Source: Nitrosopumilus sp.
GTDB lineage: Archaea > Thermoproteota > Nitrososphaeria > Nitrososphaerales > Nitrosopumilaceae
Assembly (NCBI GenBank): GCA_965218785.1
Contig: OZ244650.1
Location: 1,312,001-1,376,000, forward strand
Direction of reading: 5' to 3'
DNA: 64,000 nucleotides
Shown: piece after piece, positions 5,088 through 62,179 of the stretch
Layout of the letters: each line of letters begins with the position of its first letter
How positions within the stretch are numbered: position 1 is the first letter of the stretch
Position numbers and translations under genes: made by a program
The notes under the pieces: model-generated
The model's database searches: none
What the model was told of the DNA's origin: nothing
What the model saw: only the letters and a program-made list of their open reading frames with translations

Positions 5088-5735
5088 CTACCAGGTCACA
5101 TGAACCAGATCTTTCAGGTTTCTTCTGGGTTTTGGAAATTTTGTTTGTTCCGGATAACCTATGCAGAGTACGGAGGATGGAACCAGATCCGTTCCAATGA
5201 CATCCATTACCTTTTGTTCATCAAACATGCCGATCCAAATCGAGCTTAATCCCAGCGCCTGGGCTGCAAGCTGGGAATAGCCGGCAGCCAGGGTAGCATC
5301 CTGAATGGCAAATTTTGTGAGGACGTATTCTGGAAAATCAAACTTGACCCTAGACGGGTTTTTACAAAAGACCAGTACGACCGGGGAATCAACATAAGGC
5401 TGGTTGTTGCATGCCTTGACCAAAAGCTTTTTCTTTTCTGGATTTTTGATATAAAAAATTTCAAACCCCTGATAGTTTCCCGCAGTAGGGGCAGTGTCTG
5501 CCGCTGCAATAATCTTGTCAATCTTTGTAGTTTCAACAGGTCTGTCTGAAAATTTTCTTGTAGAGCGTCTTTTTGCCATTACGGCAAACAAGTCAGTGTC
5601 AACAATTTCCGTGGGTCCGGATTTTAAGATAAAATCAAGCAGCTGGTTTCGCAGGTTGGGATCCGTTGAGTCGGGGGTCTCCTGCGGCTCATAGCCGCGC
5701 GGGTATATCTTCTCTCCGGCATTATTTGAATCCAT
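5088..5735 (-). CDS. Nitroreductase family protein
   Basis: RRSTRKF, APTAGNYQ, AAQALGLSSIWIG, LCIGYP, KPRR motifs. Confidence 0.9.
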   Translation of the reverse strand: MDSNNAGEKIYPRGYEPQETPDSTDPNLRNQLLDFILKSGPTEIVDTDLFAVMAKRRSTRKFSDRPVETTKIDKIIAAADTAPTAGNYQGFEIFYIKNPEKKKLLVKACNNQPYVDSPVVLVFCKNPSRVKFDFPEYVLTKFAIQDATLAAGYSQLAAQALGLSSIWIGMFDEQKVMDVIGTDLVPSSVLCIGYPEQTKFPKPRRNLKDLVHVTW

Positions 5736-6074
5736 AAAGTAACTACAACAATATCCTATTAAAGAATTGTAAGCCGATGCCCGGGGTTAGTTGACGTTGT
5801 TTTCACTACTGTAACAAACGGTGTTTTGCGAAATTCTATCCCAAAAACATCTGATCGCAAAATCACGGCTGTAGAGCTCATTAGATATCTATGAATTATA
5901 AAATGCGTGATGAAAATATGCCCAGTCATAAAAGTTCGTCAGTAATACCCCATGCCTTTGATCTTTTATTTAGTGAGTTGCCATTCAATTGCTACTAGTT
6001 GTTGATGGCAGTTGGGGTTGTTTGTAAATGATCATCTGTCTTGGATAATAGTCATATCCTACAAAAATGCGTGT

Positions 6075-22199
<16,125 letters not shown>

Positions 22200-25704: not shown

Positions 25705-27219
25705 ATGATCCAGTACCTTGAGAGAAAGTATGTCCGAAAAAATTCCATAGAAAAACGCGATTATCAGGTAAGCCTTGCAAATCAGGCCATGGATGAAAAC
25801 TGCATTGTAGTTCTGCCTACCGGTCTTGGAAAGACCGCAGTCGGACTGCAGGTGATTGCAGAATATCTCTCAAAGGGGACGGGGGGCATATTGTTTCTGG
25901 CTCCGACCAGGGTTCTGGTGCATCAGCACTATGAATTCTTGAAATCAAATCTTACTTTGGATGATATTTCACTGATAACAGGGGAGGATACCGTCCAAAA
26001 ACGCTCCAAGCTGTGGAACAACAGCGTAATCTGTGCGACTCCTGAAATCACTAAAAATGATTTGGACAGACAGCTGGTATCTGCTGACCAGTTCAGTCTT
26101 GTAATATTTGATGAGGTACATCGAACAGTCGGTGATTACGCATATTCGGGAATCGCCCAGAGATTGGAAGACTCGACTGCCAGGATTCTTGGAATGACTG
26201 CCACGCTTCCAAGTGAAAAAGAAAAGGCGACTGAGATTCTAACGAGGCTTCGAATCTCAAACGTTGCCGAAAAGACAGAGGACAGCCCCGATGTAAAACC
26301 ATACATCCAAGAAACTGTCACTCAGTGGATTAGCGTGGAACTTCCTCCGGAACTAAAGGCAATTCAAACATTGTTGAAATTGGCGTTGGATGAAAGATAC
26401 GATATGTTGAAAAAAAACGGCATCCGCCTGCTAGAACAGCAGCAATCCCTTTCTGCACTGCTTAGAATCCGGCAATTTGTATTAAACCAGAACAGGCGTT
26501 CGGCAAAACCGCTGTTCACTGCAATCCGAATCCATTATGCGCTGAACATACTTGAGGCGCACGGTATCACCCCGTTTCTGAAATTCTGTGAGCGTGCCCG
26601 GGAAAAAAAGGGCGCAGGAGTAAGGGAACTTTTTGAGGTTGATCCCAATTTTACAAGGGCGATACACCTTGCAAAGGAGGCACAGTCACGAGGAATTGAG
26701 CATTCAAAAATTCCAAAACTAAAGGAGGTAATTGAATCCGTACCCGGCAAGGCCCTCATCTTTACCAGTTACAGGGATTCTGTTGATTTGATTTACAATA
26801 AACTAACCGAGCTTGGAATTTCTGCTGGAATTCTAATCGGCAAGGCAGGTCAGACCGGTCTGAAACAGAAAAAGCAGATTGAAACGGTTCAAAAATTTCG
26901 GGACGGTCTTTTTCAGGTACTAGTTGCAACGCGGGTAGGCGAGGAGGGGCTGGATATCGCAGAGGTCAACCAGGTTATTTTTTATGATAACGTTCCAAGC
27001 TCCATCAGGTTTATTCAGAGACGGGGGAGGACCGGACGAAAGGATGCTGGAAAGTTGGTGGTGTTGATTGCCAAAAACACGATTGATGAGACATACTACT
27101 GGATTGGAAGAAGAAAAATGACTAGTGCCAAATCCATGGGCGAGAAGATGACTAGGATGCTTGAAAACAACCGGGAGACAGGATCTAAGGATGCCGCGGG
27201 ATTGGATGCCTTTGTCTAA
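25705..27219 (+). CDS. Hef/FANCM (Mph1)-like SF2 helicase, no C-terminal nuclease domain
   Basis: RDYQ, VLPTGLGKT, FDEVHR, MTAT, VGEEGLDI, IQRRGRTGR. Confidence 0.92.
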   Translation: MIQYLERKYVRKNSIEKRDYQVSLANQAMDENCIVVLPTGLGKTAVGLQVIAEYLSKGTGGILFLAPTRVLVHQHYEFLKSNLTLDDISLITGEDTVQKRSKLWNNSVICATPEITKNDLDRQLVSADQFSLVIFDEVHRTVGDYAYSGIAQRLEDSTARILGMTATLPSEKEKATEILTRLRISNVAEKTEDSPDVKPYIQETVTQWISVELPPELKAIQTLLKLALDERYDMLKKNGIRLLEQQQSLSALLRIRQFVLNQNRRSAKPLFTAIRIHYALNILEAHGITPFLKFCERAREKKGAGVRELFEVDPNFTRAIHLAKEAQSRGIEHSKIPKLKEVIESVPGKALIFTSYRDSVDLIYNKLTELGISAGILIGKAGQTGLKQKKQIETVQKFRDGLFQVLVATRVGEEGLDIAEVNQVIFYDNVPSSIRFIQRRGRTGRKDAGKLVVLIAKNTIDETYYWIGRRKMTSAKSMGEKMTRMLENNRETGSKDAAGLDAFV

Positions 27220-40563: not shown

Positions 40564-40663
40564 TAGCTCAAAATGTAGTTTATCTAGATAAATACCATCC
40601 TTTGCTTGGCATATCTGCGGTATATTGAACCTGCTGTGCGATCTAAATACAGAAATACTTGAA

Positions 40664-42169
<1,506 letters not shown>

Positions 42170-48606: not shown

Positions 48607-48657
48607 AATTAGAACTTGCGTACACTTATTTATAACATGAGTTCAATATCATTATTA

Positions 48658-49737
48658 ATGAAAACAAAAGGACAGCAGTCCATGGATGAAGTCATGACTT
48701 TTGACGTAATCCGTGGCATTCAGGCAAAAAGGGAATATTATATCACCATGTGTTCATTTTCCACCATTAGTAAACACTTTGGGTATAACAATGATCCACG
48801 AATAACACCAGAACAAAAAGCACAGCGTAAGTTAAGAGAAGCAAGAATTCCCAAGATTGCCGGTTACATTTTGTCTAATCCAGATAATTATGTCATTTCC
48901 CCCATTACAGTTTCAATTGGAACCCGGTTACAATTTGATCCTTATCCAGGATTGGGTTCAGACAGCAAGGCGGGAAAACTGTTGGTTCCACTTGATGCAG
49001 TAATTTTAGTTAATGATGGACAGCATCGTTGTGCTGCGATAAAATCAGCGTACGAAGATAATCCAAACATTGGAAGTGAGAGAGTGCCAGTGGTAATGTT
49101 TGAAGACCGAGGACTCAAACGCAGTCAGCAGTTATTTGCGGATCTTAACCAGCATGCAGTAAAGCCTACAAAATCACTTAGTCTGTTGTATGATCATAGG
49201 GATACGTTTGCACGGTTTATAGTAACTTTAGTCAATGATTTAGACATATTTTATGGCAGGACTGAATTGGAACGTACCAACATAGGAAGACGCTCCAGTA
49301 AATTTTTCACATTGAATGGTGTAGCAGAAGCCACACGACATCTTTTAAAACTTAAAACAAAATCACTGGATGATGCAAAACAGAAACTTTCCGCAGAATA
49401 TTGGGATCATGTTTCAAAAAATATTCCTGAATGGAATCTTTTAATGCAAAATAAGATAAAACCAGAAAATTTAAGAAGTGAATATATTCATGCACATACA
49501 AACGTGCTAAGTGCGTTGGGAATGGTAGGTTATGTACTTACAAAAAATTCTGATTGGAAGGAGATACTGAAAGGGTTGCAGAAAATTAACTGGAGAAAAG
49601 ACAATCCAATTTGGGAAGATAAAGTTGTAATGGACGGTAAGATGTTAAAAAACAGACTGGGGATAAAGAGGGCTGCAAATGAGATATTATCATTACTGGG
49701 AGTAGATGCTACCGTAGATGGAGATGCCAGAACATGA
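48658..49737 (+). CDS. dndB: DNA sulfur modification protein DndB (DGQHR domain)
   Basis: GIQAKREYY, AQRKL...RIPKIA.YI, NDGQHR, QQLFADLN; start inferred about 25 nt after a TTTATAA box. Confidence 0.93.
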   Translation: MKTKGQQSMDEVMTFDVIRGIQAKREYYITMCSFSTISKHFGYNNDPRITPEQKAQRKLREARIPKIAGYILSNPDNYVISPITVSIGTRLQFDPYPGLGSDSKAGKLLVPLDAVILVNDGQHRCAAIKSAYEDNPNIGSERVPVVMFEDRGLKRSQQLFADLNQHAVKPTKSLSLLYDHRDTFARFIVTLVNDLDIFYGRTELERTNIGRRSSKFFTLNGVAEATRHLLKLKTKSLDDAKQKLSAEYWDHVSKNIPEWNLLMQNKIKPENLRSEYIHAHTNVLSALGMVGYVLTKNSDWKEILKGLQKINWRKDNPIWEDKVVMDGKMLKNRLGIKRAANEILSLLGVDATVDGDART

Positions 49738-51242
49738 CAGTGGAATCAATCTTCCAATCCCGAACCCTTGATAGCGTTTATGATGAGATAAGGCAGGTAT
49801 ATCTTGGAGACAACAGACCGTGGATTCTAGGATTCAGCGGGGGTAAGGATTCTACATGCATGGTTCAGCTTATCTGGAATGCACTATCCAAACTACCTGC
49901 TGAAAAACTGCACAAAAACATATTCGTAATATCCTCAGACACGCTTGTGGAATCCCCAAAGGTCGTAGAGCAGATAACCAACACGCTGGATATGATGGAA
50001 AAAGCCGCACAAGAATCACATCTTCCAATATCCACCAATCTGATAAGGCCTGTAACAGAGGATACATTCTGGGTCTGTCTTTTAGGCAAGGGCTTTCCTG
50101 CCCCCAGCAACCTGTTTAGATGGTGTACTGAACGCCTGAAGATAAGAAATGCAGATCGGTTCATCCAGGACAAAGTCTCTGAATATGGCGAGGCAATAGT
50201 GGTACTTGGAACAAGAAAAGACGAGAGCGGCTCCAGACACCAACTGATGAACCTGTATGCGATAAAAAACAGCCTGCTTTCACGACACTCAAAATTTGCA
50301 CAGACATACGTCTATACTCCACTACGTGACTTTACGGCAGAAGATGTATGGAATTATCTATTACAGCAGAAAAATCCGTGGGGTGCAAACAATCGGGATC
50401 TTTTGGCATTATACCAGAACGCAAACGCATCAGAATGTCCATTGGTGGTAGACAGCAGTACACCATCATGTGGAAATAGCAGGTTTGGATGTTGGACATG
50501 TACCGTAGTCAGCGAGGATACATCTTTGCGAAACACCATTGAAAACGGGGAGGAATGGATGGAACCGTTGCTTGAACTGCGCGAGGAGCTAAAAGAGACC
50601 CAGGATCCTGCAAAAAGAAAAGTTGTCAGATCCCTCAAGCGCAGAACGGGGCAGATGAAACTTATCGATGATGCACGCAAGAAGAAATTTGATGAAAGAA
50701 TCAGCGAATCCAAAATGGAGCTGAGGAAAAAGGGTGATGACGGCAGTGATGATCCATACTCCAAACTGGTTCCTGGGCCGTACACGTTGGAGTTCTGTCA
50801 GGAATTTCTTGAAAAACTGCTCAAGGCACAGAAAAAAGTCAGGCAAACCGGGCCGGATCCCAACATGATGCTAATTTTGGATGAGGAAATTCACGAGATC
50901 CAGAGAATATGGCGCATGGAGCGGGGTGACTGGAGAAATACAGCATACCAGATATATGAAAAGATACTCGGTGAGAAACTGGTTCTGCCTCAGGAGGATT
51001 TGGGAGGATTTGGCGTTATTGAGCAGGATGTGTTGGAGCAAATTTGTCATGAAAACAACGTTCCCACACTACTGGTTTCAAAACTGCTAAACGCAGAACA
51101 TGAATTGCAGGGAATGACGCAGCATTCCAAAATCTATCCCAAAATAAACAAGATATTGTCCGAGGAATGGAGAGAAGACCTAGATGATATAGTGCGCGAC
51201 CTTGAAGGTCAGAAACACGTGAAGAAGGAGTTTGGTGGCTGA
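49734..51242 (+). CDS. dndC: DNA phosphorothioation sulfurtransferase DndC
   Basis: RPWILGFSGGKDS, SDTLVE, RWCT.RLKI, CGNSRFGCWTC. Confidence 0.96.
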   Translation: MTVESIFQSRTLDSVYDEIRQVYLGDNRPWILGFSGGKDSTCMVQLIWNALSKLPAEKLHKNIFVISSDTLVESPKVVEQITNTLDMMEKAAQESHLPISTNLIRPVTEDTFWVCLLGKGFPAPSNLFRWCTERLKIRNADRFIQDKVSEYGEAIVVLGTRKDESGSRHQLMNLYAIKNSLLSRHSKFAQTYVYTPLRDFTAEDVWNYLLQQKNPWGANNRDLLALYQNANASECPLVVDSSTPSCGNSRFGCWTCTVVSEDTSLRNTIENGEEWMEPLLELREELKETQDPAKRKVVRSLKRRTGQMKLIDDARKKKFDERISESKMELRKKGDDGSDDPYSKLVPGPYTLEFCQEFLEKLLKAQKKVRQTGPDPNMMLILDEEIHEIQRIWRMERGDWRNTAYQIYEKILGEKLVLPQEDLGGFGVIEQDVLEQICHENNVPTLLVSKLLNAEHELQGMTQHSKIYPKINKILSEEWREDLDDIVRDLEGQKHVKKEFGG

Positions 51243-53284
51243 TGATCATAACAAAGGTGATACTGCAGGATTACGGTGTGTACAGGGGCATAAACGAGTT
51301 TGATTTTACCTGTTCTGAAAAAAGACCCATAGTACTAGTTGGAGGCACAAACGGTGCTGGCAAGACAACGCTTTTTGAATCTATAATGCTGGGTCTTTAT
51401 GGAATTGCCACCATGGGAAAGCGCAGCACGAAAAAATCGTATGAGCAGTTTATCGGGCAAAAGATTCATCGATATCTCAAAAGCTCGACATCTGCAGACC
51501 ATGCATCAGTTATAGTACAGTTTAAATTTTTTCACAGTGGACGTGTTACCGAATACCGTGTAGAGCGGTCATGGATGAGGCAGGATGGCGGCATAGACGA
51601 ACAACTAAACATAAAAAAACGCAGTTCGGATCAGGAAAAATTTGATCCGTTAGGTGCCATAGAAAAATCCCACTGGCAGTCCTTTATCGAAGATTTAATT
51701 CCAAGAGGAATAGTAAAACTGTTCTTTTTTGACGGAGAAAAGGTGGTAAAGATTGCAAAAGAAGGTACCGAAGATATCACAATCCGGGAATCATTCAAGT
51801 CGCTTCTTGGAATCGAGGTGGTATCACAACTTTATACGGATCTACAGGTAAATCTGACAAGGAATCTTACCGGTAATGCAAAAACATTACAACAGGATTT
51901 TGAAAGATATAATGCAGAAAAAAACGAGATCATGGAAAGTGTAAAAAGACTCAAGTGGAGACTGGCACAAAAACAGACAGAGATGGATTCGTTGCATATG
52001 GAGATAGACAACATGGAAATCAAGATCTCAAAAATTGGGGGCATGTTTGCCAGCAAACGAGACGAGTCCAAGGGCAAACTTGCCACACAAAAACTAGCAT
52101 ATGAAAACATACAACAGAGACTCATCGAGTCATGCTCAGGCGTACTCCCATTTGCAATCATACCTGCAGAGCTTGAAATACTGCACAAACAAATTCAGAC
52201 AGACGAGTCAATTCAGCAGCAGACTGCAGGCAAAGAATTTTTTAATTCCAGACTCAAAAAGATGAAATCCAAGGTAGAGACACAGGAATTCTGGATTGAT
52301 TCAGGGCTTGATGCAGATGAAATAGACAAGGCAATCTCAGTAGCATCTGCAGTGATAAAAAAAGAGATGGTAAATAATGACTCATCTGACAAACCTGTAT
52401 TTGACCTTTCATCTGAGCAGGCAGGCAGAATCACCGAAATAATACGACAGGCAAATACTGTTGCCTTGCAGAAAATCAGCGCGGATACAAAGAAGATAAT
52501 AGAGGTCGGCGAAGAGGTTACTCTTCTTGAAACATCAATTGCAAACGCCCCTGATGATGATGAGATAGGATCACTGATGTCCAGCATGGGGAATCTGCAC
52601 ACGCAGGAAGGAGCACTACAAGCAGAGATGGATCACATAGAGGAAAAGATAGCAAGCAATATGTCCCTTAGGGGTCATCTTGACTCCAAATTACGTGGCA
52701 TAGTGTCACAGATTTACAAAACTGAAAAATCAGCGCAGCATGTGGAAATGACGCAAAAAATCCAGAAGGTTTTAGAGATATTCATAGACAAACTAAAGAT
52801 AAAAAAGATTCACTTGCTAGAGACGTATCTGCTAGATGCCATCAAGACACTAATGCACAAAAAAGAATTCATCGAGGCGGTTCAAGTCGACCCGGACACG
52901 TTTGAGGTTACACTATTTAGAAAAAACGGCGACCAATTCCCAAAGAATCTTTTATCTGAAGGAGAAAAACAGATGTTTTCAATGGCAGTTCTGTGGGCAC
53001 TGGCAAAGACATCCGGAAGACCACTGCCATTTATGATAGACACGCCGCTTGCAAGACTTGATGAGGCACACCGAACAAATATTGTTGAAAAATTCTTTCC
53101 TACAGCATCACATCAAACTTTGATATTCTCGACTGATACTGAGATAAAAAATTCTGACTATAAGAAACTGGAATCATGTCTTATGCGATCATATGCTATG
53201 GAGTACCTTGACGAGGAGGGTGCCACGCACAAGCATGATGGATATTTTTGGAACAAGGAGGGTAAGCGAATTGTTGCGATTTAA
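51242..53284 (+). CDS. dndD: DNA sulfur modification SMC-like ATPase DndD
   Basis: GGTNGAGKTT, LFFFDGE, LSEGEKQ, IDTPLARLD..HR, STDTEI. Confidence 0.95.
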   Translation: MIITKVILQDYGVYRGINEFDFTCSEKRPIVLVGGTNGAGKTTLFESIMLGLYGIATMGKRSTKKSYEQFIGQKIHRYLKSSTSADHASVIVQFKFFHSGRVTEYRVERSWMRQDGGIDEQLNIKKRSSDQEKFDPLGAIEKSHWQSFIEDLIPRGIVKLFFFDGEKVVKIAKEGTEDITIRESFKSLLGIEVVSQLYTDLQVNLTRNLTGNAKTLQQDFERYNAEKNEIMESVKRLKWRLAQKQTEMDSLHMEIDNMEIKISKIGGMFASKRDESKGKLATQKLAYENIQQRLIESCSGVLPFAIIPAELEILHKQIQTDESIQQQTAGKEFFNSRLKKMKSKVETQEFWIDSGLDADEIDKAISVASAVIKKEMVNNDSSDKPVFDLSSEQAGRITEIIRQANTVALQKISADTKKIIEVGEEVTLLETSIANAPDDDEIGSLMSSMGNLHTQEGALQAEMDHIEEKIASNMSLRGHLDSKLRGIVSQIYKTEKSAQHVEMTQKIQKVLEIFIDKLKIKKIHLLETYLLDAIKTLMHKKEFIEAVQVDPDTFEVTLFRKNGDQFPKNLLSEGEKQMFSMAVLWALAKTSGRPLPFMIDTPLARLDEAHRTNIVEKFFPTASHQTLIFSTDTEIKNSDYKKLESCLMRSYAMEYLDEEGATHKHDGYFWNKEGKRIVAI

Positions 53285-53648
53285 CAGGCTCAGGATGAGC
53301 TACCGCTCACAGAATCTGCTGGCACACCTAAAATCCAGAACGGGTATTACGCCAAACGTCATGGGTAGATTTGCAATATGTTTATCCCTCAACGACCCAT
53401 CACCTCCAAATCCTGATGAATTTGATGAAAAGGGTTCTGAGATACATGCGTCCGTATTGTTTGGCGAGTATGAGGATATCTTTATGACACTAATGGTTCA
53501 GAGGTTACGACGGGAGGGGTATGATCCGGAGAAATATCTCAACAAGATGGTACGTGCCCACTTTAACCGTGGAACCATAGCGCTGTTTGCAAGAGTCCAT
53601 GATATCTCTGACTTTGAGAGGGTCATACAACAGGAGAGACAGAATTGA
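53271..53648 (+). CDS. dndE: DNA sulfur modification protein DndE
   Basis: LKSRTGITPNVMGRFAICLSL, LFGEY, AHFNRG; GGAGG upstream of the TTG start. Confidence 0.93.
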   Translation: MLRFNRLRMSYRSQNLLAHLKSRTGITPNVMGRFAICLSLNDPSPPNPDEFDEKGSEIHASVLFGEYEDIFMTLMVQRLRREGYDPEKYLNKMVRAHFNRGTIALFARVHDISDFERVIQQERQN

Positions 53649-54838
53649 TGAACAAGATGGTCCAAGACAAGGATCTGTCCAATTCCAGATTACCGATATA
53701 CCTTGATCACAACGCAACCACACCACTTGATTCCAATGTGCTAGCTGAGATGATGCCGTACTTTACAGAAAAATTTGGAAATGCATCAAGTACGGACCAC
53801 AGACACGGACATGATGCTTCTGAGGCAGTTGAATCTGCAAGAGAGGATATAGCAAATACAATAAACGCAAAGCCCGGAGAGATAGTATTTACTGCGGGTG
53901 CCACAGAGTCTGACAATATGGCACTTGTCGGCGTCATGAACAGGTATGCAGACAAGGGAGATCATCTGATTACCTGTGTTACAGAACACAAGGCGGTACT
54001 AGATGTCGCAAGATATCTTGAGAGTGTGGGGAAAAAAGTCACGTATCTTCCAGTAGATGAGCTTGGACACGTCAATCTAGATGAGCTTCATGATGCAGTT
54101 ACAGACAAGACCGTAATGATATCAATCATGACTGCAAACAATGAGATTGGAACCATTGCAGACGTTGAATCCATTGGAAAGATAGCACATGAAAACGACA
54201 TATTGTTTCACACCGATGCGGCGCAGGCAGTAGGGCATATTCCAATGGATGTACAAAAGATGAATATTGATCTGATGTCGTTTTCAGCACACAAGATGTA
54301 CGGTCCCAAAGGAATCGGTGCGTTGTATGTAAGTGGGATAAAGCCGCGGGTACAGCTGGATCCGATCGTAAGAGGGGGTGGACAGGAGCACAATATGCGC
54401 TCTGGGACACTCAACGTTCCCGGAATAGTGGGATTTGGAAAGGCAGCCTCCATTGCAGCGACTATGATGTATCAAAATAATCAAGATCAAAAACAATTGG
54501 CAGTAACCATGCTTAAATTACTAGAAGAGAACGGCTGGCTACTCAATGGAGACCGGAACAACAGACTTTCAGGAAACCTCAATGTATGCCATCCTGGAAT
54601 AGATGGCAAGGCCATAATTAATTCAGTCTCAAAACAGATTGCAATATCTGCAGGATCTGCTTGTACGACCCAGAATGTGGAGCCATCCCACGTGATAACT
54701 GCCCTTGGATACGGTGAGGAGAGAGCATATTCCTCAATCAGGATAGGGATAGGCAGGTACAACGTAAATGATGAGACAGAATTTGCTGCAGGGGGGATAA
54801 TTGAGGCAGTCAGGACTATTAAGAGATTCAATGGGTGA
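53645..54838 (+). CDS. dndA: Cysteine desulfurase DndA (IscS-like)
   Basis: YLDHNATTP, HTDAAQ, SAHKMYGPKG, SAGSACT; operonic with dndE. Confidence 0.93.
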   Translation: MMNKMVQDKDLSNSRLPIYLDHNATTPLDSNVLAEMMPYFTEKFGNASSTDHRHGHDASEAVESAREDIANTINAKPGEIVFTAGATESDNMALVGVMNRYADKGDHLITCVTEHKAVLDVARYLESVGKKVTYLPVDELGHVNLDELHDAVTDKTVMISIMTANNEIGTIADVESIGKIAHENDILFHTDAAQAVGHIPMDVQKMNIDLMSFSAHKMYGPKGIGALYVSGIKPRVQLDPIVRGGGQEHNMRSGTLNVPGIVGFGKAASIAATMMYQNNQDQKQLAVTMLKLLEENGWLLNGDRNNRLSGNLNVCHPGIDGKAIINSVSKQIAISAGSACTTQNVEPSHVITALGYGEERAYSSIRIGIGRYNVNDETEFAAGGIIEAVRTIKRFNG

Positions 54839-54959
54839 CGGATATGACAAATGACTATGTTCAAACTCAAGGTTGGGTAGAAATAATGCTGATGAAGTTG
54901 TCTTTCTTGTAAATACTCTAAAATCCCGAATCAAGATGATTTCAGGCATAGACGTAACG

Positions 54960-54975
54960 TAGAACTTTTAAAGGT
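54960..54975 (+). promoter_or_regulatory. Putative BRE/TATA promoter of the ParB-led operon
   Basis: agaacTTTTAAAg about 22-30 nt before the ATG at 54995. Confidence 0.5.
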
Positions 54976-54994
54976 ATTAACACCAATTGTAAAC

Positions 54995-55813
54995 ATGTCT
55001 AAAATTCAAGACAGCATAAATATTCCATTAGAACAGATAACTCTTAGCAAAAATCAAGCTAGACAGAGGGATACAAAAGTAGATGAAGACGATGATCTGG
55101 TTCATAGTATTAGAAAAAACGGATTACTTTACCCTATCCTTGTTAAGAAAATATCTGACAATGAATATGAGGTTATAAGCGGACAGAGGCGATTTCGAGC
55201 ACATGAAATCCTGAAGAAACCCACGATTAAAGCATCTATCCATGCAGATGAACTTGACGATTTTGAATCAAAAAAACTCTCCCTAGCCGAAAATATTGCA
55301 CGTAAAGATATGAAACATGCAGATTATGTAGATGTCATAACAGTTTTTCTGAATAGATATGGCAAGACTAAAATCGTTGCAGAAGAGCTTGGATTGTCTG
55401 TTTCAACGGTGAGAAAATATCTGAATATATCTAGATTACCAGAAAAAATTCAAGAAGCAGTAAATAAAAAAGAAATCGGACTTAATAATGCAATGAAAGC
55501 ACTAGATATATTGGGAGGTGACGAAACAACTGTGGATGAAAACAAGCTTTATGATGTAGCTGTAGCAATGAAAGGATTGACTCCACCTGTAAAAAATAAA
55601 CTTAAAGGAATTATAGAGAATGAGCCAGATACCACACCAAAAGATGCTGTAGAAAAAGCTAAAAAACGAGTTACAAAAAATCTCATTGAAACAGAAGTAA
55701 CAGATGATATGATAACCCGAATAGACAAATTCAAAGATATTGAAGGCATAGAAAAAACTGATGATGCAGCTGCAGAACTAATAGATTTGGGACTTATATC
55801 TAAAGATCTATAA
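54995..55813 (+). CDS. ParB/Spo0J-like protein (CTPase domain + HTH), no parA partner
   Basis: LVHSIRKNGLLYPILV, YEVISGQRRFRA, SLAENIAR, VAEELGLSVSTVRKYL, LPEKIQEAV. Confidence 0.9.
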   Translation: MSKIQDSINIPLEQITLSKNQARQRDTKVDEDDDLVHSIRKNGLLYPILVKKISDNEYEVISGQRRFRAHEILKKPTIKASIHADELDDFESKKLSLAENIARKDMKHADYVDVITVFLNRYGKTKIVAEELGLSVSTVRKYLNISRLPEKIQEAVNKKEIGLNNAMKALDILGGDETTVDENKLYDVAVAMKGLTPPVKNKLKGIIENEPDTTPKDAVEKAKKRVTKNLIETEVTDDMITRIDKFKDIEGIEKTDDAAAELIDLGLISKDL

Positions 55814-56550
55814 TGCAATTACTTGACGATCCGTATAGATTGGCCAAACTGCTTGCTAGTATTAATGTGCCTGGAGCTGACCGACCTCTCAGTCCCTTAG
55901 AAGTTTCAAATGAAATTTACACACTACGTTCTGAGTTAGATGATGATGCAGAGCTTGTAAAAAGATTACCGATATCCAGGGACATAATACAGCAGTTTTT
56001 GGCTCTGCAAAACTTGCCTGAAGAGATACAAGACATCATAGTCTGGGGAGAGTCAAAAAACGATACGGGATCCATTGGTTTTAGCGTAGCTAGCCGGCTT
56101 GCACAATTTGAGAACAAAGAAGACATTAACAAATTAGCCAGTGCGATTATTGATATTCCAAGACCCGTTATAAAGGAAGAAATCAAGGCAATACTGAGCC
56201 TAAAAAAACAGAACAAAAACAAACCCATCGAAGAATGCATCTCTGAAGTTCTCAAAGTTATGCGTCCTTTGATAATACGACATTTCTTGTTCATAAGTGG
56301 GTTGCAATCAGGCATAATAAACAAGTTAAAATTATCTGTAAAATCAAATCAAAATATACATGGACTTGCAATAGAAATATTACAAACGGTGTTCCCAACA
56401 GACTCTGTAAAAAGTGCAAAAGTTTTTGATGATTGTATCAGATTATCTATTAGTAAAAATGGAAGAGATTTCATTGATAAATACTCCGAATCTCACAACT
56501 TGTTAAGAAAAGATATAATAAATCATATGTTTGAATCAAAAGGATTCTAA
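55813..56550 (+). CDS. Hypothetical protein resembling the ParB central HTH region, lacking the CTPase domain
   Basis: LSPLEVS...ELVKRLPISRDIIQQFLAL.NLPEEIQDII; TAATG coupling to parB. Confidence 0.6.
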   Translation: MQLLDDPYRLAKLLASINVPGADRPLSPLEVSNEIYTLRSELDDDAELVKRLPISRDIIQQFLALQNLPEEIQDIIVWGESKNDTGSIGFSVASRLAQFENKEDINKLASAIIDIPRPVIKEEIKAILSLKKQNKNKPIEECISEVLKVMRPLIIRHFLFISGLQSGIINKLKLSVKSNQNIHGLAIEILQTVFPTDSVKSAKVFDDCIRLSISKNGRDFIDKYSESHNLLRKDIINHMFESKGF

Positions 56551-56552
56551 AA

Positions 56553-57593
56553 TTGAACACAGTGGATCTTTTTTCAGAAGTAGATATTACAACGAAAGGT
56601 GCTATCTGTTTGGGAAATTCACTTGTATGTGATGGATTTGCGTCTGGATATAAGGCAGCCGCATTTACACACATACACCATGATCACATAGCAAACAGTT
56701 TTGAAACATGCATGCATAATTATCCCACATATACATCAAAGATTACGCGTGAACTGTTAGAAAAAGTGACAGACGACATATACGACAAAAAAACTCAATT
56801 TCATACTTTGGATTATGGTGTCAGAACACTCATCCCAGATACGAGTGACTATCTTCAATTACTGGAATCAAGTCACATGCTTGGGTCTAGTCAAATTCTT
56901 CTTCATACACATAACAAATTAAAAATTCTGTATTCTGGTGACATATCCCCCACAGATACAGCACCAGAATGTGACATTCTTGTGGTCGATTCCACGCATG
57001 GCGTACCGCAATTGGACAAGAAGATAGACAGTGCTAGCCTTAATCGCCGACTGATAGACAAGGTGGTGGAAAGTATTTCTGAACAAAAGCCAGTCTGCAT
57101 CCATGCCCACAGGGGAAAGCTTCAGTCTCTCATGCACCTTCTATCGGAGTGTTCTGACATTCCAGATGACGTGAAATTTCTCTCCCAACTCATCGACAAG
57201 CGTGTGTCTGAGACATACAACAGGCATGGTTACACGACAAAGGAAATAATCGACATCGATACATACGAAGGGGAGGAAATAACAGACAATGGCTACCCCT
57301 GGATAGAATTTCGGACATCACTTGTACCAACTAAAAATGAAAAAGAACACAAACTCTCAAGCATATATGTAGTAGGTAATTTTGGCAAAACCACGATAAG
57401 ACATGACAAAAACGATGGAGGGTTTCATATGGCATCCGACGAGCATGCCGAATTTACCGATTTGTTAAAATATGTAAAGAATGCTAAACCAAAGGTAGTG
57501 GTGACTGATAATTATCGTTCTAGTTTTGGAAAACAACTTGCCAATGAAATTCAATCCAAATTGGGCATTCCTGCAAAATCTTTACCTGAATAG
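56553..57593 (+). CDS. Metallo-beta-lactamase/beta-CASP nuclease
   Basis: THIHHDH, SHMLGS, YSGD, VDSTHG, SDEHA motifs. Confidence 0.85.
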   Translation: MNTVDLFSEVDITTKGAICLGNSLVCDGFASGYKAAAFTHIHHDHIANSFETCMHNYPTYTSKITRELLEKVTDDIYDKKTQFHTLDYGVRTLIPDTSDYLQLLESSHMLGSSQILLHTHNKLKILYSGDISPTDTAPECDILVVDSTHGVPQLDKKIDSASLNRRLIDKVVESISEQKPVCIHAHRGKLQSLMHLLSECSDIPDDVKFLSQLIDKRVSETYNRHGYTTKEIIDIDTYEGEEITDNGYPWIEFRTSLVPTKNEKEHKLSSIYVVGNFGKTTIRHDKNDGGFHMASDEHAEFTDLLKYVKNAKPKVVVTDNYRSSFGKQLANEIQSKLGIPAKSLPE

Positions 57594-57595
57594 AC

Positions 57596-58945
57596 ATGTT
57601 TCATAAATCTAATGTTTTTGAGAAGATATTGGAAAAATTAGCAGGTATTTCCATAGTAATAAACAATGATCTATTGGAAAATAAGAACGGGAAATATGTG
57701 AAAACCGTCCGCACTCCTATTTTCAGGAGAGGTAATCTTGCACAAATTGGGAAAGAAGATCGTATCGACCATATGAGGTTGCAATACGATATGAAAGAAA
57801 TACTTCAAAAACATGCAAGTGGAAAGCCACAACTAAAAGCCGCCAAATCTCTCTTCATCCACACGCTAGAGAAGGAAATGAAATCATTCAATTTACAACG
57901 TCAAGATGAATTAGATGAATTGGCAACCAATCATTTGTTGGGTTTTATTATGCATGTTTTTAAAAAATATAATAACAAACCGGTATTGAATTTTAAAAAA
58001 CTATTGCGTGATTTTGAAGATCATGCTCATGACAAGATATTTCCATATTTTCACGTTACTCCAGTGTTCAACGTAAAGGGTGATTTTAAGACAACTTTTA
58101 TTTCAGACGAGATGCACATTAGAAAAATAACAAATGATGAATATTCAAAAATAGTTAATCTTCAAAACATTCCGATCAAAGATATTCCATACCATCACAA
58201 ACGCCTGGAATACGTACTAGTGCATAAAGTCATTCCAAAAAAACCACGAAGTGTTCTGCCTGATGTGATAAAAGACTATGAGAGTGTTCTGAATCAATTG
58301 AAATTATTCACAGAAGGCAATCCCCAGTTTGGCAACATCTACAAGCTAGAGTTTGACAAGCAATATACCGGCAAATTGAATTTTTTTGAATCCGGCTATG
58401 AAAAACCATCATCTCCAAAAACCATTATGTTAACTCCTAGGAAAATCAAAGATTTTGTAAAGTTTTATGCCGATTTGTCTGAAAAATGCAATGAAATGAC
58501 ATTTTTGTACACATCCATAAAGCGTTTTGGAATGGCATATCACCATCGGAGTGAGTCTGATAAAATTGTGGATTATGTGATTTCTTTGGAGGCACTGTTG
58601 GTTTTAGGACCTGGGGAATCCACACAAAAACTGTCTCATAGAGTGTCTGCGTTATATGGAAAGACTGATCATGAAAAATTATGGATCTGGGAGTTTATGA
58701 AAGAAGCATACAAATTCCGAAGTGGTATTTTACATGTTGGGCAGGAACGATCCTTCAAAGTGGATTCACAAAAAATAGAACTGGAGGCAGTCTCAGAAAA
58801 ACTTCATACCATAACTAAAACGTCAATTCATCGGTTTAGCAAACTTCTCGATGTGTATAAAAAACAAGACAGAATTATCAATGAATTGGACAAATCTATG
58901 TATGATCGTGGAATCTTGTCACACATGAAAAAATTATGGAATTGA
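57596..58945 (+). CDS. ApeA-like HEPN domain protein (putative RNase effector)
   Basis: IVDYVISLEALL...KLSHRVSAL...AYKFRSGILH (RxxxxH). Confidence 0.8.
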   Translation: MFHKSNVFEKILEKLAGISIVINNDLLENKNGKYVKTVRTPIFRRGNLAQIGKEDRIDHMRLQYDMKEILQKHASGKPQLKAAKSLFIHTLEKEMKSFNLQRQDELDELATNHLLGFIMHVFKKYNNKPVLNFKKLLRDFEDHAHDKIFPYFHVTPVFNVKGDFKTTFISDEMHIRKITNDEYSKIVNLQNIPIKDIPYHHKRLEYVLVHKVIPKKPRSVLPDVIKDYESVLNQLKLFTEGNPQFGNIYKLEFDKQYTGKLNFFESGYEKPSSPKTIMLTPRKIKDFVKFYADLSEKCNEMTFLYTSIKRFGMAYHHRSESDKIVDYVISLEALLVLGPGESTQKLSHRVSALYGKTDHEKLWIWEFMKEAYKFRSGILHVGQERSFKVDSQKIELEAVSEKLHTITKTSIHRFSKLLDVYKKQDRIINELDKSMYDRGILSHMKKLWN

Positions 58946-59117
58946 CTATATGTTCAATTTATTGTGAACAGTATTGCCAAGATGGATTAAAATCCCATGT
59001 TTTGTGGCCATTCTGCTGTACAAAAAATAGGTCGTACTAATTTCAGGCATACTACAAAGGAATACTGTCTGAATCGATCAAGAAAACGAATGATAAAAAG
59101 ATTCTAGACATCACAGA

Positions 59118-59440
59118 TATAGCGACGATCAAAAGTTTCTGAACATTTTTGCAGGGTTTCTAAAAATATAATTGGCAATATCAAGCTTGAACCTTGTTAT
59201 CCTAGAGTATTGAGATATGGTCTTGTTCATTATTGTAAACATTGTATAATATTCCAAGACCAACAATGAATGTTACTTATTTTCCAGTATTGTTCCATCA
59301 TGTTAAGCCACGGAGATCCTTTTGGCAGCTGGATCAACCAGACATTGTGATTTTCCAGTAAATTCCTTGACTTTTTTTTTGATTTGTGGACTGATACCCT
59401 GTCAAGAATTAATCTAATCTTACCATCCAGCATAGTCCAG
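59118..59440 (-). mobile_element. IS630-family transposase 3' remnant with probable terminal repeat
   Basis: LILDRVSVHKS...LPKGSPWLNMMEQYW (DDE motif); frameshifted tail TISQYSRITRFKLDI; end-like TATAGCGACGATCAAAAGTTT at 59118. Confidence 0.8.
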
Positions 59441-59466
59441 AATCCAAAATCATGAGATGGATATTT

Positions 59467-59898
59467 TTACTTTTTCAAATATTTCCGAAATTCATTTTCC
59501 AATGATTCTAACGGTTCATCACTTTCATCATATAACATTTGGAGATATTTGATTCCACCATTTGAATATTCTTCAGCGTTTGTGAGAATCTGATCAGGTT
59601 CCCATAATATAGATACGCCTGCATCGGGATGTGTTTTAAAATAAAGTGAAATCATTAACCATCTTTCTTCTTTTGTAAATACTGCTGTAGGAATTGTATT
59701 ACTTGGTTTTGTAATTTTAGTGGGAGGAATATCCTTCTTATATCCCAGAGCCATTGCAGTTATGAATATATTTGTCATGTTTTTGTTATAAAAAAACGAT
59801 TTTGTTACTTTGATCATCTTTTTATAAAAATCAGAATATTCCTCATCATAACTAGTGTATTTTTTGAATTTAAATTCATACCGTTCATCTTGTTCCAT
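59467..59898 (-). CDS. pbeD: PbeD-like protein (phosphorothioation-associated)
   Basis: IFITAMALGY...AEEYSNGGIKYL; last gene of the helicase-small-ATPase-small operon. Confidence 0.65.
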   Translation of the reverse strand: MEQDERYEFKFKKYTSYDEEYSDFYKKMIKVTKSFFYNKNMTNIFITAMALGYKKDIPPTKITKPSNTIPTAVFTKEERWLMISLYFKTHPDAGVSILWEPDQILTNAEEYSNGGIKYLQMLYDESDEPLESLENEFRKYLKK

Positions 59899-59902
59899 TC
59901 TA

Positions 59903-61990
59903 TTATGCCTCCTTTACTATTGTTCTTGATGATGTATCAGAAATTTTTTCCATTTCCAATCTCATGGCTTTTCCTATTCTTCCATTCTTCTGTAATATTT
60001 TTTGAATTGACTCTATAGGTTTACCTGTTTTGGTATCTTTTATTATTTCGGCATTGTACTCGGTGTTTGTTACAAGTAATGTGATCTGCGTGTCTGGAAG
60101 ATATATGGGGAGATCCTTTGCAGCAGATACTCTTTCTTGTCCAGATACTTTGCCAAATGGAGAATCAATTATCATTGGATAATTCGTATCAGTTACTTCT
60201 CTTACGGCTGCAATATAGCTTAAAGCAAGATATAGAGTCTGACCTGCTGATAATGTCTTTAAATTATTAACCTGTTCGGTATCAATAACTCTAATTTTAT
60301 AATTCTCATCAATTTCAATTCTGTCAATTTGCCAGTTTCTTGTAATTAGTTTTTTAAATATCTCTTCTGTTCTGTTTTGAACTTTTTCTCGAATATCTGT
60401 TAGTAATTCTTCTCTAATCTGATTCAAAATACAATGTGCTTTATCCGCCAAGTCCTTTTTTTGAATCCATTTTTTTGCAGCATCAGTTGTACCAGTGACA
60501 CGGGATATCTTTGCATCCAAATCTTGTATTTCTGATTGTAATGCTTGTTTTTGAGCTTCTTTTAGAGTCAATTCTTGATTAAGTGTTTCTTTTGCATGTC
60601 TCATACTGTCTAGATTAGTTGCAGTTTTTCTAATATCTTTCTCATCATATTCTTTTAGTTTTTCAATTGTGCCATTAACTTTTTCTTTAGCCTCTCGGTA
60701 CGCCAGCCCATATTCTTCCTCTTTTTGACGTAATTCATCTAATTTTTCAAGTATCTCTTTTGAATTCATCGTTTCGATCATGTTGGTTAAGGTCTCTTTT
60801 CCTTCATAGGAGATATTTATCAATGGTGAATTCTTTACTTTATCTCTTAATTCTTCTAAATAATTCATTTCATTACTGGTTTCATTGAATTTTGTTCCAC
60901 AGATACATTCTTTGTGTTTTATCAATTCATCTACAAAGAATTTTTTAATTGGGGGTGGAGTTTCTCCCTTAATCTCTGATTCTTTTAATAGGTTGAATGT
61001 ATGTTCTGTCGCATCCTTCAAGAGTGTTTGTGCAAAATTATCTGTAATGTATGTCATTCGATGATCTTTTTGTCCTACTACGAACTTGTCAAATTGTTCA
61101 CGATTAATTTTTTCAGAATGTAGCTGTCCTTGTAAAATTTCATATGCTTTCAATGGATGTGCTGCCATGGTCATTTCAAGCTGTTTTATATTCTGTTCAT
61201 ATTCTGTCATATTACTATGTCCTATACCTAGACCTTTCTCAATTTTTTCCAGTGTGGTTGTTTTTGATTCTAATTTATCTTGATCAATTCTAGTAGTTGT
61301 ACCAGATGATTTTGCAGCTCTGCTAGAATATAGTTTCAATATTGTTTTCCAGTGATCAATTGATCTTTCTGTAACTGGCAATCCAGAAACTTTTTCAATC
61401 CCATCCTTGATTTTTCCTGAATTTTCATCTTTAAAGAATGAATCTAACATTTCTCCATTAAAAATTACAAAACTCGCTAATTTTTCTGGTAAAAATGTAG
61501 TGACTTTGTCTAGAAATCTAGATGAATCATCTGTAGAATCCCAACTTCCATCACTACTTCTTTGTTTAAACGACTGTGTGATGAATGTGGAAAAACCTGA
61601 ATCGATTTGTCCGGCGGCATCTGAATCAAAGTCTTTCTCTCGTTCATCAGTTGTTCTCTTACAATCCAAATTTCTTGTTATTTGATATTTTGGTCCTTGA
61701 TCATCGTTAATTGTTATTGTAACTGAGCTCTCACAAGCATCACCTACCTTAGTAGCATTTAGAATATTCTGGTTTGGAATGGGTTTACCTTCTCCTTCAT
61801 TTAGAAATTCTTCTTTCTCATAAAGACACCAATACATGGCGTTAATCAAGGATGTCTTTCCTGTGGAATTATTTCCTTCAATAATCGTAAACGATTTTTT
61901 TTGATCCTGGGAAAAATCTATTAAAACATCTTCATATTGTCTAAAGTTTTTTAATTCAACATTCTTTATTGTTAGATTTTTTCCAGCCAT
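59903..61990 (-). CDS. pbeC: PbeC-like SMC/Rad50 ATPase with CxC hook
   Basis: GNNSTGKTS, IFNGE, CICG, LSAGQ, IIDSPFG. Confidence 0.75.
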   Translation of the reverse strand: MAGKNLTIKNVELKNFRQYEDVLIDFSQDQKKSFTIIEGNNSTGKTSLINAMYWCLYEKEEFLNEGEGKPIPNQNILNATKVGDACESSVTITINDDQGPKYQITRNLDCKRTTDEREKDFDSDAAGQIDSGFSTFITQSFKQRSSDGSWDSTDDSSRFLDKVTTFLPEKLASFVIFNGEMLDSFFKDENSGKIKDGIEKVSGLPVTERSIDHWKTILKLYSSRAAKSSGTTTRIDQDKLESKTTTLEKIEKGLGIGHSNMTEYEQNIKQLEMTMAAHPLKAYEILQGQLHSEKINREQFDKFVVGQKDHRMTYITDNFAQTLLKDATEHTFNLLKESEIKGETPPPIKKFFVDELIKHKECICGTKFNETSNEMNYLEELRDKVKNSPLINISYEGKETLTNMIETMNSKEILEKLDELRQKEEEYGLAYREAKEKVNGTIEKLKEYDEKDIRKTATNLDSMRHAKETLNQELTLKEAQKQALQSEIQDLDAKISRVTGTTDAAKKWIQKKDLADKAHCILNQIREELLTDIREKVQNRTEEIFKKLITRNWQIDRIEIDENYKIRVIDTEQVNNLKTLSAGQTLYLALSYIAAVREVTDTNYPMIIDSPFGKVSGQERVSAAKDLPIYLPDTQITLLVTNTEYNAEIIKDTKTGKPIESIQKILQKNGRIGKAMRLEMEKISDTSSRTIVKEA

Positions 61991-62179
61991 TTACTCACCG
62001 TATTTATCAACAAAATCCGAGACTCTTCGGTCATATTCTTTTGTATATTCTTTTTCACCTAAAGAACTCTGCATTTTTTCATAATCAAGTAAATTAAGTA
62101 ATAAATTCTTAAACTCTTCTGATTCATCCAATTCTTCAATTTTTGAAATAATTAATGGATTAATGGTAAAAATACCCAA
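61991..62179 (-). CDS. pbeB: PbeB-like small protein
   Basis: 62 aa acidic helical ORF between helicase and ATPase, abutting the ATPase start. Confidence 0.6.
   Translation of the reverse strand: MGIFTINPLIISKIEELDESEEFKNLLLNLLDYEKMQSSLGEKEYTKEYDRRVSDFVDKYGE

Follow-up and report, generated by a model that had tools for sequence, protein, structure and literature searches.

What task is carried out by a cassette of four genes that stands directly behind the genes for phosphorothioate (PT) modification of DNA in an archaeon? This question is raised by a stretch of 64,000 nucleotides (nt) from Nitrosopumilus sp. (assembly GCA_965218785.1, contig OZ244650.1, positions 1,312,001 to 1,376,000 of the forward strand; hereafter, the window), in which the genes g1, g2, g3 and g4 (54995-58945, + strand) follow dndBCDEA. 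Four kinds of effector arm are known in PT-based defence, namely DndFGH, PbeABCD, DndI/SspE and SspFGH, and the first report of dnd genes in thaumarchaea is reportedly that of Ahlgren and co-workers in 2017. An initial annotation of the window had proposed that g1-g4 are a new defence module inside a Dnd-Pbe island, composed of a ParB protein, a ParB-like protein lacking the NTPase domain, a beta-CASP nuclease and an ApeA-like HEPN protein. The cassette is real, conserved and apparently undescribed. We propose, with modest confidence, that in Nitrosopumilaceae it serves as a restriction or effector arm alongside a DNA-modification module, in nearly all cases dndBCDEA, acting by a mechanism that we infer.

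Conservation of the Gene Order

Related loci were collected from a scan in which each species was represented by one genome, 301 Nitrosopumilaceae genomes, 401 genomes of the phylum and marine metagenomes, and were scored with profiles built on the first loci. A g3 orthologue (E<1e-20) was present in 46 loci, the window excluded. Gene g2 was located directly upstream of g3 in all 36 loci that had 800 nt or more of upstream sequence, and g1 upstream in all 27 loci with at least 1750 nt. Directly downstream of g3, g4 was found in 27 of the 31 loci with at least 1450 nt on that side; the loci lacking it were L003, L041, L043 and L086. Because this gene order recurs in 46 related loci, g1-g4 are more than a chance arrangement and form a real conserved unit; the order g1-g2-g3(-g4) was kept across the collection, and the homologues do co-occur elsewhere. 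The cassettes belong to at least four clades, between which the identity of g1 and of g3 is 22-39%; at its lowest, protein identity across clades is 22-35%.

An extended form of eight genes was observed in two of the clades. A SNF2 helicase of about 585 amino acids (aa) is encoded between dndA and g1 (PADLOC BrxHI 6.3e-76, DrmD 4.4e-73), and this form also has an unknown protein of some 260 aa (u260). Downstream, in convergent orientation, is a gene whose product combines a cysteine-rich region with a ParB-HTH-like RLP motif (HTH, helix-turn-helix), and a second metallo-beta-lactamase (MBL)/RMMBL enzyme is encoded as well. No PADLOC match was obtained for u260, protein X and the second MBL of the extended form or for a g3 of clade C. 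The window itself encodes a 504-aa DEAD/ResIII helicase (25705-27219, + strand) with a strong match to the profile of the cassette SNF2 helicase (2.1e-109). Because comparable genes of about 505 aa were present in every related genome searched, the cassette helicase seems to have a housekeeping gene as its paralogue.

Some copies are decaying: a DDE transposase sits within the split g1 of L041, and g4 is interrupted in L005. The insertion sequence (IS) elements that interrupt or abut cassette genes are located at 12082-13146 (-) in L041 (genome G052), 11853-12791 (+) in L005 and 11582-13030 (-) in L087 (genome G014), and comprise DDE_3 and IS66 transposases and an unclassified open reading frame (ORF) of 312 aa. 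Two apparently bacterial occurrences, on contigs assigned to Rubritalea (L004, 3.9 kb) and to Alphaproteobacteria (L008, 2.9 kb, G+C content 0.33), were set aside as probable binning errors in public metagenome-assembled genomes, their proteins being 48-58% identical to those of Nitrosopumilaceae. An unrelated MBL (L007, 24% identity) was also discarded.

A ParB/Noc-Type Protein and Its NTPase-Less Relative

On sequence criteria, g1 is a canonical ParB/Noc-type protein that is predicted to bind NTP. It matched ParB_N (PF02195) with 5.6e-16 and TIGR00180 with 1.1e-27 (97 bits, the cut-off being 58.45; residues 8-169), and HTH_ParB slightly below the cut-off (21.7 against 22.6 bits). Its architecture joins an N-terminal NTP-binding domain, which carries the GxxR arginine motif of the ParB/Spo0J family as GQRR, to a central HTH DNA-binding domain and a short helical C-terminal tail. 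Residues G63 Q64 R65 R66, E99 and R147-L148-P149 were invariant in 16 aligned orthologues, which agrees with the intact GxRR motif and the HTH first read from the sequence. The profile of these 16 orthologues matched Noc (7ol9, 1.6e-22), ParB/Spo0J and KorB (2.4e-10), and covered both the N-domain and the HTH of the Noc/ParB structures. The ParB fold can bind CTP, ATP or GTP, according to the available text of PMC12704722. The match of g1 to GmrSD_N (DUF262) in Pfam was negligible (E 0.16), and its PADLOC matches were at the level of domains only (PDC-M38A 1.3e-6, mad1 1.5e-4).

This ParB-fold protein is not a partition ParB, since the nearest AAA_31 (ParA-type) match, the only one in the 2.0-Mb genome, lies about 186 kb past the window and no parS-type palindrome was found in 54700-59500, where only two weak AT-rich palindromes were detected, both inside g4. 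The absence of parA from the window, remarked on earlier, is thus corroborated. Two more ParB_N genes are present in the source genome, both far from the cassette.

The second protein, g2, is from its profile matches a ParB-like protein that has the DNA-binding domain and lacks the NTPase domain. It matched HTH_ParB (3e-4) slightly below the Pfam cut-off, TIGR00180 at positions 102-183 only (8.6e-5) and, as a profile, residues 95-197 of Spo0J (6sdk, 3.2e-4), which are its DNA-binding domain; PF17762 was carried by 13 of 27 homologues, and no ParB_N match was obtained with Pfam. In PADLOC, g2 had no match of any kind. A BLASTP comparison of g1 and g2 gave 25% identity over 87 residues (E 0.003), with g2 aligned to the HTH region of g1. 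The view that gene 2 resembles the HTH half of gene 1 without its N-domain was therefore well founded. The ParB-type DNA-binding domain spans approximately residues 23-145, and the conserved residues of 19-35 orthologues were confined to the N-terminal half, the C-terminal half being poorly conserved. A FokI cleavage domain that was suggested for the C-terminus (E 0.019) was dropped, as that half has no conserved residues in these orthologues. The predicted g1-g2 complex scored 0.28, against a mark of 0.32, which speaks neither for nor against a heteromer.

A Minimal Beta-CASP Metallo-Beta-Lactamase

The product of g3 is predicted to be an active beta-CASP MBL nuclease with all of its metal ligands conserved. 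Residues H40, H42, D44, H45, H108, D130, D146 and H298, which we take to make up the MBL motifs HxHxDH, H and D and the acidic and histidine motifs of beta-CASP enzymes, were at least 90% conserved in 36 sequences. The g3 profile matched the archaeal aCPSF1 (3af5, 4.5e-25) in the PDB and also FttA, Cas14, CPSF73, SNM1A, Apollo and Artemis (4.5e-25 to 1e-9), so that the HxHxDH and beta-CASP motifs initially attributed to gene 3 were recovered in full. The enzyme is minimal, with 346 aa and without KH, RMMBL or other appended domains. The best NCBIfam match was to the ligase-associated exonuclease TIGR04122 (1.1e-10, 40.9 bits against a cut-off of 325), and Cas14 (NF045584) was matched with 9.3e-7 (27.6 bits against a cut-off of 800). 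With scores far under these cut-offs, g3 belongs to neither curated subfamily; as none of the curated family cut-offs is even approached, it constitutes a separate family. A DinG match of g3 in PADLOC (0.003) was considered spurious.

The R-x4-H Protein

Downstream of these genes, g4 is an accessory to the g1-g3 core and probably encodes a HEPN-like RNase, a call made on its R-x4-H motif alone. Its structural model (AF2) had a pLDDT of 90.9 over the full length, and the C-terminal domain modelled by itself reached 87 (range 87-97). The prediction shows N-terminal alpha/beta domains followed by an all-helical C-terminal bundle that contains R375-x4-H380; g4 thus has an R-x4-6-H motif placed in an all-helical domain. 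Residues Y372, R375 and H380 were invariant in 54 family members. The family comprises 844 representative relatives (E<=1e-3), which are unannotated, stand-alone and mostly bacterial.

No Pfam match at E<=1 and no NCBIfam, PADLOC or PDB sequence match was obtained for g4, and none of the 54 relatives had a consistent PADLOC match. ApeA, with which the protein had initially been compared, is a stand-alone HEPN defence protein. It resembles g4 in size and in layout, having N-terminal domains and a helical C-terminal domain with R-x4-H, whereas the HEPN_Apea model (PF18739) matched nothing in the source genome even at E<=10, g4 included, and none of the 54 family members; HEPN_RiboL-PSP matched one of the 54 (0.001). 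Alignment with hhalign of the family profile to two genuine Apea proteins from related archaea gave non-significant probabilities of 0.4 and 0.05. Fold searches with the whole model and with the C-terminal domain returned no match at E<=0.001, the HEPN proteins Csm6, 1wty and sacsin appearing only among the non-significant ones. In a language-model comparison, all 30 nearest neighbours were unnamed bacterial clusters of about 450 aa (0.97), and the nearest named clusters, HEPN_Apea/ApeA_NTD1 and YopA (0.85-0.89), are a lead only. Of the proposed ApeA-like HEPN, then, the invariant R-x4-H in a helical domain stands, along with weak language-model leads, and the kinship to Apea was not confirmed.

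Linkage to Dnd and Other DNA-Modification Genes

Where 8 kb or more of flanking sequence was available (15 loci), dnd genes were present in 13, which bears out the expected enrichment next to dnd; the other two were L003, with a dndB fragment only, and L086. In the core type the distance between dndA and g1 was 36-157 nt (157 in the window, 88 in L002, 77 in L005, 51 in L044 and 36 in L040). Only the dnd genes and g1-g4 were common to the loci first compared, all other ORFs of the flanks being different. In the 301 Nitrosopumilaceae genomes, g3 orthologues were found in 10 and dndC in 46 and eight of the 10 cassette genomes had dndC. Five genomes marked as unpublished (G092, G228, G077, G206 and G258) are counted in these tallies, and none of the individual claims depends on them. 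Of the remaining two, one carries dndA at a contig end adjoining g1 (L044), and for the other there is an assembly of 76% completeness and a contig of 2.3 kb.

The partners are not always the same ones. Loci L042 and L046 have DndC proteins that are 91% identical and cassettes of different clades (g3 35% identical), and in L006 a cassette of the window type (g3 53%) is placed beside distant dnd genes (DndC 54%, DndD 35%). The dnd cluster is inverted and located on the other side of the cassette in L001, and two tandem dnd-cassette sets of different clades, one extended and one minimal, occur within 30 kb in genome G299 (L039/L040, contig 1, 1651000-1684999). The phylogenies of dndC and of the cassette are discordant, which points to re-association rather than to one inherited juxtaposition; candidate effector genes thus adjoin PT modification genes across lineages.

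Two loci have other modification genes. In genome G423 (L086), which belongs to another family, is 99% complete and has no dndC, g1-g2-g3 are adjacent to a fusion of ParB_N with an N6_N4 methyltransferase (11706-13493, -) and to the second MBL known from the extended form; with another ParB_N+HTH protein (5615-6790, -), three ParB-fold genes are found there within 8 kb. In genome G014 (L087), g1-g2 are next to an SspC fragment (2.7e-107), a class-V aminotransferase and an IS66 transposase. A DNA-modification module is therefore the common denominator of the cassette neighbourhoods, these exceptions included.

Full-length PbeA was present in five of the 10 cassette genomes searched (G000, G145, G089, G052 and G033) and was not found in G299, G041, G019, G176 and G112; in G052 and G145 it stands beside a different dnd cluster from the one linked to the cassette. 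Since the cassette follows dndA and occurs without Pbe, it is better described as a phosphorothioation partner than as a separate module inside an island. The four genes are not linked to parA or replication genes, the left flank of the window being of housekeeping type and the sole AAA_31 match lying far outside it. Taken as a whole, the initial annotation stands in that the cassette is a conserved, unnamed unit without a link to partition or replication; its partner is dnd, which the cassette follows in most loci, rather than a Dnd-Pbe island, and membership of ApeA is not borne out.

Layout of the Locus and Flanking DNA

The coordinates of the cassette and of its neighbours are collected in Table 1. 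The tight packing of the four co-oriented genes matched the first description exactly, and the TTG start of g3 is consistent with the N-termini of its homologues. The A/T-rich box CTTTTAAAGG, read from the sequence in the 157-nt spacer between dndA and g1, is a possible internal promoter, and comparable A/T boxes were seen by eye in several orthologous loci. The signal of a bacterial promoter and terminator scan did not exceed that of shuffled sequences, the model of that scan not being applicable to archaea.

Table 1. Cassette genes, promoter candidate and neighbouring modification and defence genes, in window coordinates
Feature	Position	Strand	Remarks
dndB-dndC-dndD-dndE-dndA	48616-54838	+	directly upstream of the cassette; phosphorothioate modification genes; PADLOC and Pfam; PADLOC E-values DndB 1.7e-120, DndC 4.4e-184, DndD 2e-174, DndE 1.1e-42, DndA 6.7e-155
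TATA-like box, CTTTTAAAGG	54965-54974	+	A/T-rich; 21-30 nt 5' of the g1 ATG; read from sequence
g1	54995-55813	+	272 aa; ATG start
g2	55813-56550	+	245 aa; ATG start; overlaps g1 by 1 nt
g3	56553-57593	+	346 aa; TTG start; 2-nt gap from g2
g4	57596-58945	+	449 aa; ATG start; 2-nt gap from g3
pbeD-sized ORF	59467-59898	-	143 aa; size near PbeD (152 aa)
pbeC	59903-61990	-	PADLOC PbeC 6.6e-86
pbeB-position ORF	61991-62179	-	62 aa; size near PbeB (66 aa)
pbeA	62337 to past the window end (64000)	-	PADLOC PbeA 3.4e-136

The ORF positions and PADLOC matches confirmed that the cassette lies between dndA and a convergent pbeD. The sizes used for comparison are those of PbeB and PbeD in Haloterrigena (available text of PMC6459918). 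The convergent pbeABCD is a complete, separately described PT-linked system and stands outside the cassette. Across the dnd-cassette-pbe stretch the G+C content falls to 0.31-0.43, from 0.45-0.53, and the left flank of the window is made up of housekeeping genes (arginyl-tRNA synthetase, argS; a GTPase; sulfite reductase; rhodanese).

The source genome has a second complete dndBCDEA cluster about 76 kb past the end of the window (G000 contig 1, 1452458-1458631; L089 6458-12631, -), which has no cassette and is followed, in convergent orientation, by a 584-aa protein with a weak MzaB match and a 564-aa helicase (PADLOC PbeA-like 1.4e-22, type IV restriction-like). Elsewhere in the window, a single ORF of 5374 aa (6075-22199, -) occupies a region of raised G+C content (0.46-0.52) and probably encodes a giant surface protein. 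A 514-aa protein with collagen triple-helix repeats (40625-42169, +; PF01391 6e-54) is unusual in an archaeon.

Comparison with Described Systems

PADLOC-DB 2.0 gave no system-model match for g1-g4, and a ParB and beta-CASP cassette with dnd was not described in any of the papers reached by full-text searches, although an unnamed listing in supplements (e.g., the neighbourhood tables of PMC10853773) is possible. The combination is thus apparently not a named system, as had been presumed. It was not described in the available text of PMC10853773, PMC6459918, PMC12704722 and PMC6563490, or of the thaumarchaeal genome papers PMC12780485 and PMC7848895. The accessible text of a reappraisal of Dnd lists HKD, HNH, REase, URI, HEPN and PIN nucleases near dnd, and the terms "lactamase", "MBL" and "CASP" are absent from it (PMC10853773). 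As far as its available text goes, a 2025 survey of the ParB-CTPase fold reports scattered archaeal ParB-HTH proteins without ParA, the cassette not being described (PMC12704722).

The closest likeness in logic is to DndI/SspE, where a ParB-superfamily NTPase and a nuclease also adjoin PT modification genes, and where PT marks are sensed by the NTPase and tune it, and thereby the fused nuclease or DNA binding (available text of PMC11662687 and PMC13251355). In DndI and SspE, however, one polypeptide unites a DUF262 domain (DGQQR motif) with an HNH/DUF1524 nickase. In the cassette the NTPase is of the classical ParB/Noc type and has an HTH (GQRR), the nuclease is a beta-CASP enzyme encoded separately, and two extra proteins are present; the two are related by the ParB fold only. 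PbeABCD is likewise an archaeal gene set adjoining dnd genes (PMC6459918, in the part available), convergent to the cassette in the window, but its components are an SF2 helicase, an ATPase resembling SMC and two small proteins, and none of g1-g4 matched the Pbe models. DndFGH resembles the cassette in being a restriction arm of several proteins with genetic coupling to dndABCDE; it has no homology to the cassette, g1-g4 having no PADLOC match to DndF, DndG or DndH. The NCBIfam model dnd_assoc_2 had no match in five cassette genomes, and no positive control was matched by it either.

The CTP-dependent DNA clamps ParB, Noc and KorB, which are the best solved relatives of g1, have the same N-domain and HTH architecture and the invariant arginine motif. 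Unlike them, g1 has no ParA partner or parS-like palindrome nearby, has an NTPase-less paralogue and a nuclease for partners, and stands in a context of defence and modification rather than of segregation. The beta-CASP nucleases aCPSF1/FttA, CPSF73, SNM1A/Apollo/Artemis and Cas14 share the MBL and beta-CASP metal-binding motifs with g3, which differs in its minimal form and in falling below all curated cut-offs. That a beta-CASP enzyme can serve as an immune effector has a precedent in Cas14 of type VII CRISPR.

Discussion

The domain identities of g1-g3, their intact catalytic and NTP motifs, the gene order and the physical linkage to dnd are directly established. On this basis, the cassette would be a functional counterpart of DndFGH, PbeABCD or DndI/SspE. 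In the mechanism that we propose, g1 would serve as a ParB/Noc-type NTP-gated DNA clamp, and would engage and scan DNA together with its NTPase-less paralogue g2, perhaps as a complex. PT marks would change the nucleotide cycle of g1 or its residence time, as with the ParB-superfamily NTPase domains of DndI/SspE, and the g3 nuclease would consequently be directed to unmarked foreign DNA. The probable HEPN-like RNase g4, if it has this activity, would be an optional second-line effector. Half of the cassette genomes have no other obvious restriction partner, PbeA being present in only five of 10, and the extended form adds a defence-type SNF2 helicase; both observations support a restriction or effector arm. 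A bolder version, which we put forward only tentatively and regard as rather doubtful, is that the ParB-type clamp is itself the reader of self and non-self, which slides with g2, reads phosphorothioates (elsewhere base methylation) and licenses g3, and so represents a new class of modification-dependent restriction. Such a system appears to be confined so far to ammonia-oxidising archaea, in minimal (three to four genes) and extended (eight genes, SNF2 helicase) forms.

Several observations weigh against an arm of this kind. The g1-g2-g3 triad of G423 exists without any dnd, the cassette is missing from 36 of the 46 dndC-positive genomes of the 301-genome sample, and in L048/L050 no dnd was seen in the sequence upstream of the helicase, of which 1.7 and 3.1 kb could be read. 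As pbeABCD, the described partner of dndCDEA, is itself complete in the window, the locus can be explained without the cassette. An alternative restriction partner is offered in some loci by a DUF262 gene (GmrSD_N; PADLOC HEC-06/Orf5/SspE-like) beside dnd; these genes, whose proteins of about 560-700 aa are possible DndI/SspE-type partners, occur in L005 (2-1684, +), L044 (1849-3552, -), L048/L050 (L050 729-2831, -) and L053/L054 (L054 3540-5597, -). Moreover, g1 is a classical ParB and not a DUF262 protein, so the analogy to DndI/SspE is one of logic only, and the search of the cassette and its surroundings gave no parS-like palindrome. A single archaeal family supplies nearly all loci, and the near-duplicate metagenome loci L053/L054, L048/L050 and L061/L062 mean that the counts overstate independence.

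The cassette might instead be an autonomous defence system, in which DNA sensing of the ParB type is coupled to a nuclease and an RNase independently of phosphorothioation and which is found near dnd through the clustering of defence genes in islands. This we consider unlikely. The dnd-free triad of G423 fits it, as do the low G+C content of the island in the window, where two further systems are present, the wide distribution of the g4 family on its own, mostly in bacteria, and the frequent decoupling of modification and restriction modules that is argued for in the Dnd reappraisal (available text of PMC10853773). An island effect, however, predicts varied neighbours, and what was observed is dnd in 13 of 15 well-flanked loci whose other flanks all differ, usually co-oriented and either 36-157 nt away or parted only by cassette-specific genes. 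Even the exceptions adjoin other DNA-modification genes (methyltransferase, Ssp), and no g3 orthologue was found in a demonstrably dnd-free genome among the 301 Nitrosopumilaceae sampled.

There is considerably less to be said for the view that the cassette regulates or maintains the dnd island, g1 and g2 being DNA-binding regulators like KorB or DndB, or partition-type proteins of a mobile element, and g3 and g4 serving addiction or stabilisation; we judge it quite improbable. ParB-family proteins do act as regulators, KorB is among the profile matches of g1, and DndB is itself a regulator of the ParB superfamily (PMC10853773, available text); yet dndB is already present at the locus in that role, and a nuclease with a strictly conserved active site is unexpected in a regulator. 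The island is evidently mobile, as its flanks differ and IS elements interrupt copies in L041 and L005, and thaumarchaeal integrative and conjugative elements encode ParB-like proteins (PMC6563490, in the part available). In those elements, however, ParB is described as following TFIIB, which is not so here, and no integrase, conjugation or replication genes were common to the loci. Neither the housekeeping left flank (argS, GTPase, sulfite reductase) nor the lack of parA within 186 kb suits such a role, and two pattern-set scans of viral contigs returned no relatives. Least probable of all, in our estimation, is a DNA-repair accessory, that is, a beta-CASP enzyme recruited by the ParB-type proteins to process lesions or breaks at phosphorothioate sites, or during modification, and not foreign DNA. 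It would explain the dnd linkage equally well, and the best NCBIfam match of g3 is an exonuclease of the ligase-associated DNA damage response, far below the cut-off, with the repair nucleases SNM1A, Apollo and Artemis among its profile matches. Against this, a repair role has to face the lack of the cassette in most dnd-positive genomes, the triad without dnd in G423 and the defence-type helicase of the extended form, and a HEPN-like protein of a stand-alone family would be unexpected in repair.

If the restriction or effector arm is the true function, the cassette would be the fifth effector arm of PT-based defence, combining a beta-CASP nuclease with a switch of the classical ParB type, and would extend the rule that ParB-fold NTPases read backbone sulfur. 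It would also offer an immune function to the field that studies CTP switches, and the unannotated g4 family, with its 844 relatives, would gain a first functional context. The cassette provides clean targets for mutants in GQRR (g1), HxHxDH (g3) and R375/H380 (g4). For the Nitrosopumilaceae, globally abundant nitrifiers whose defence against viruses is barely known, it would represent a candidate antiviral system.

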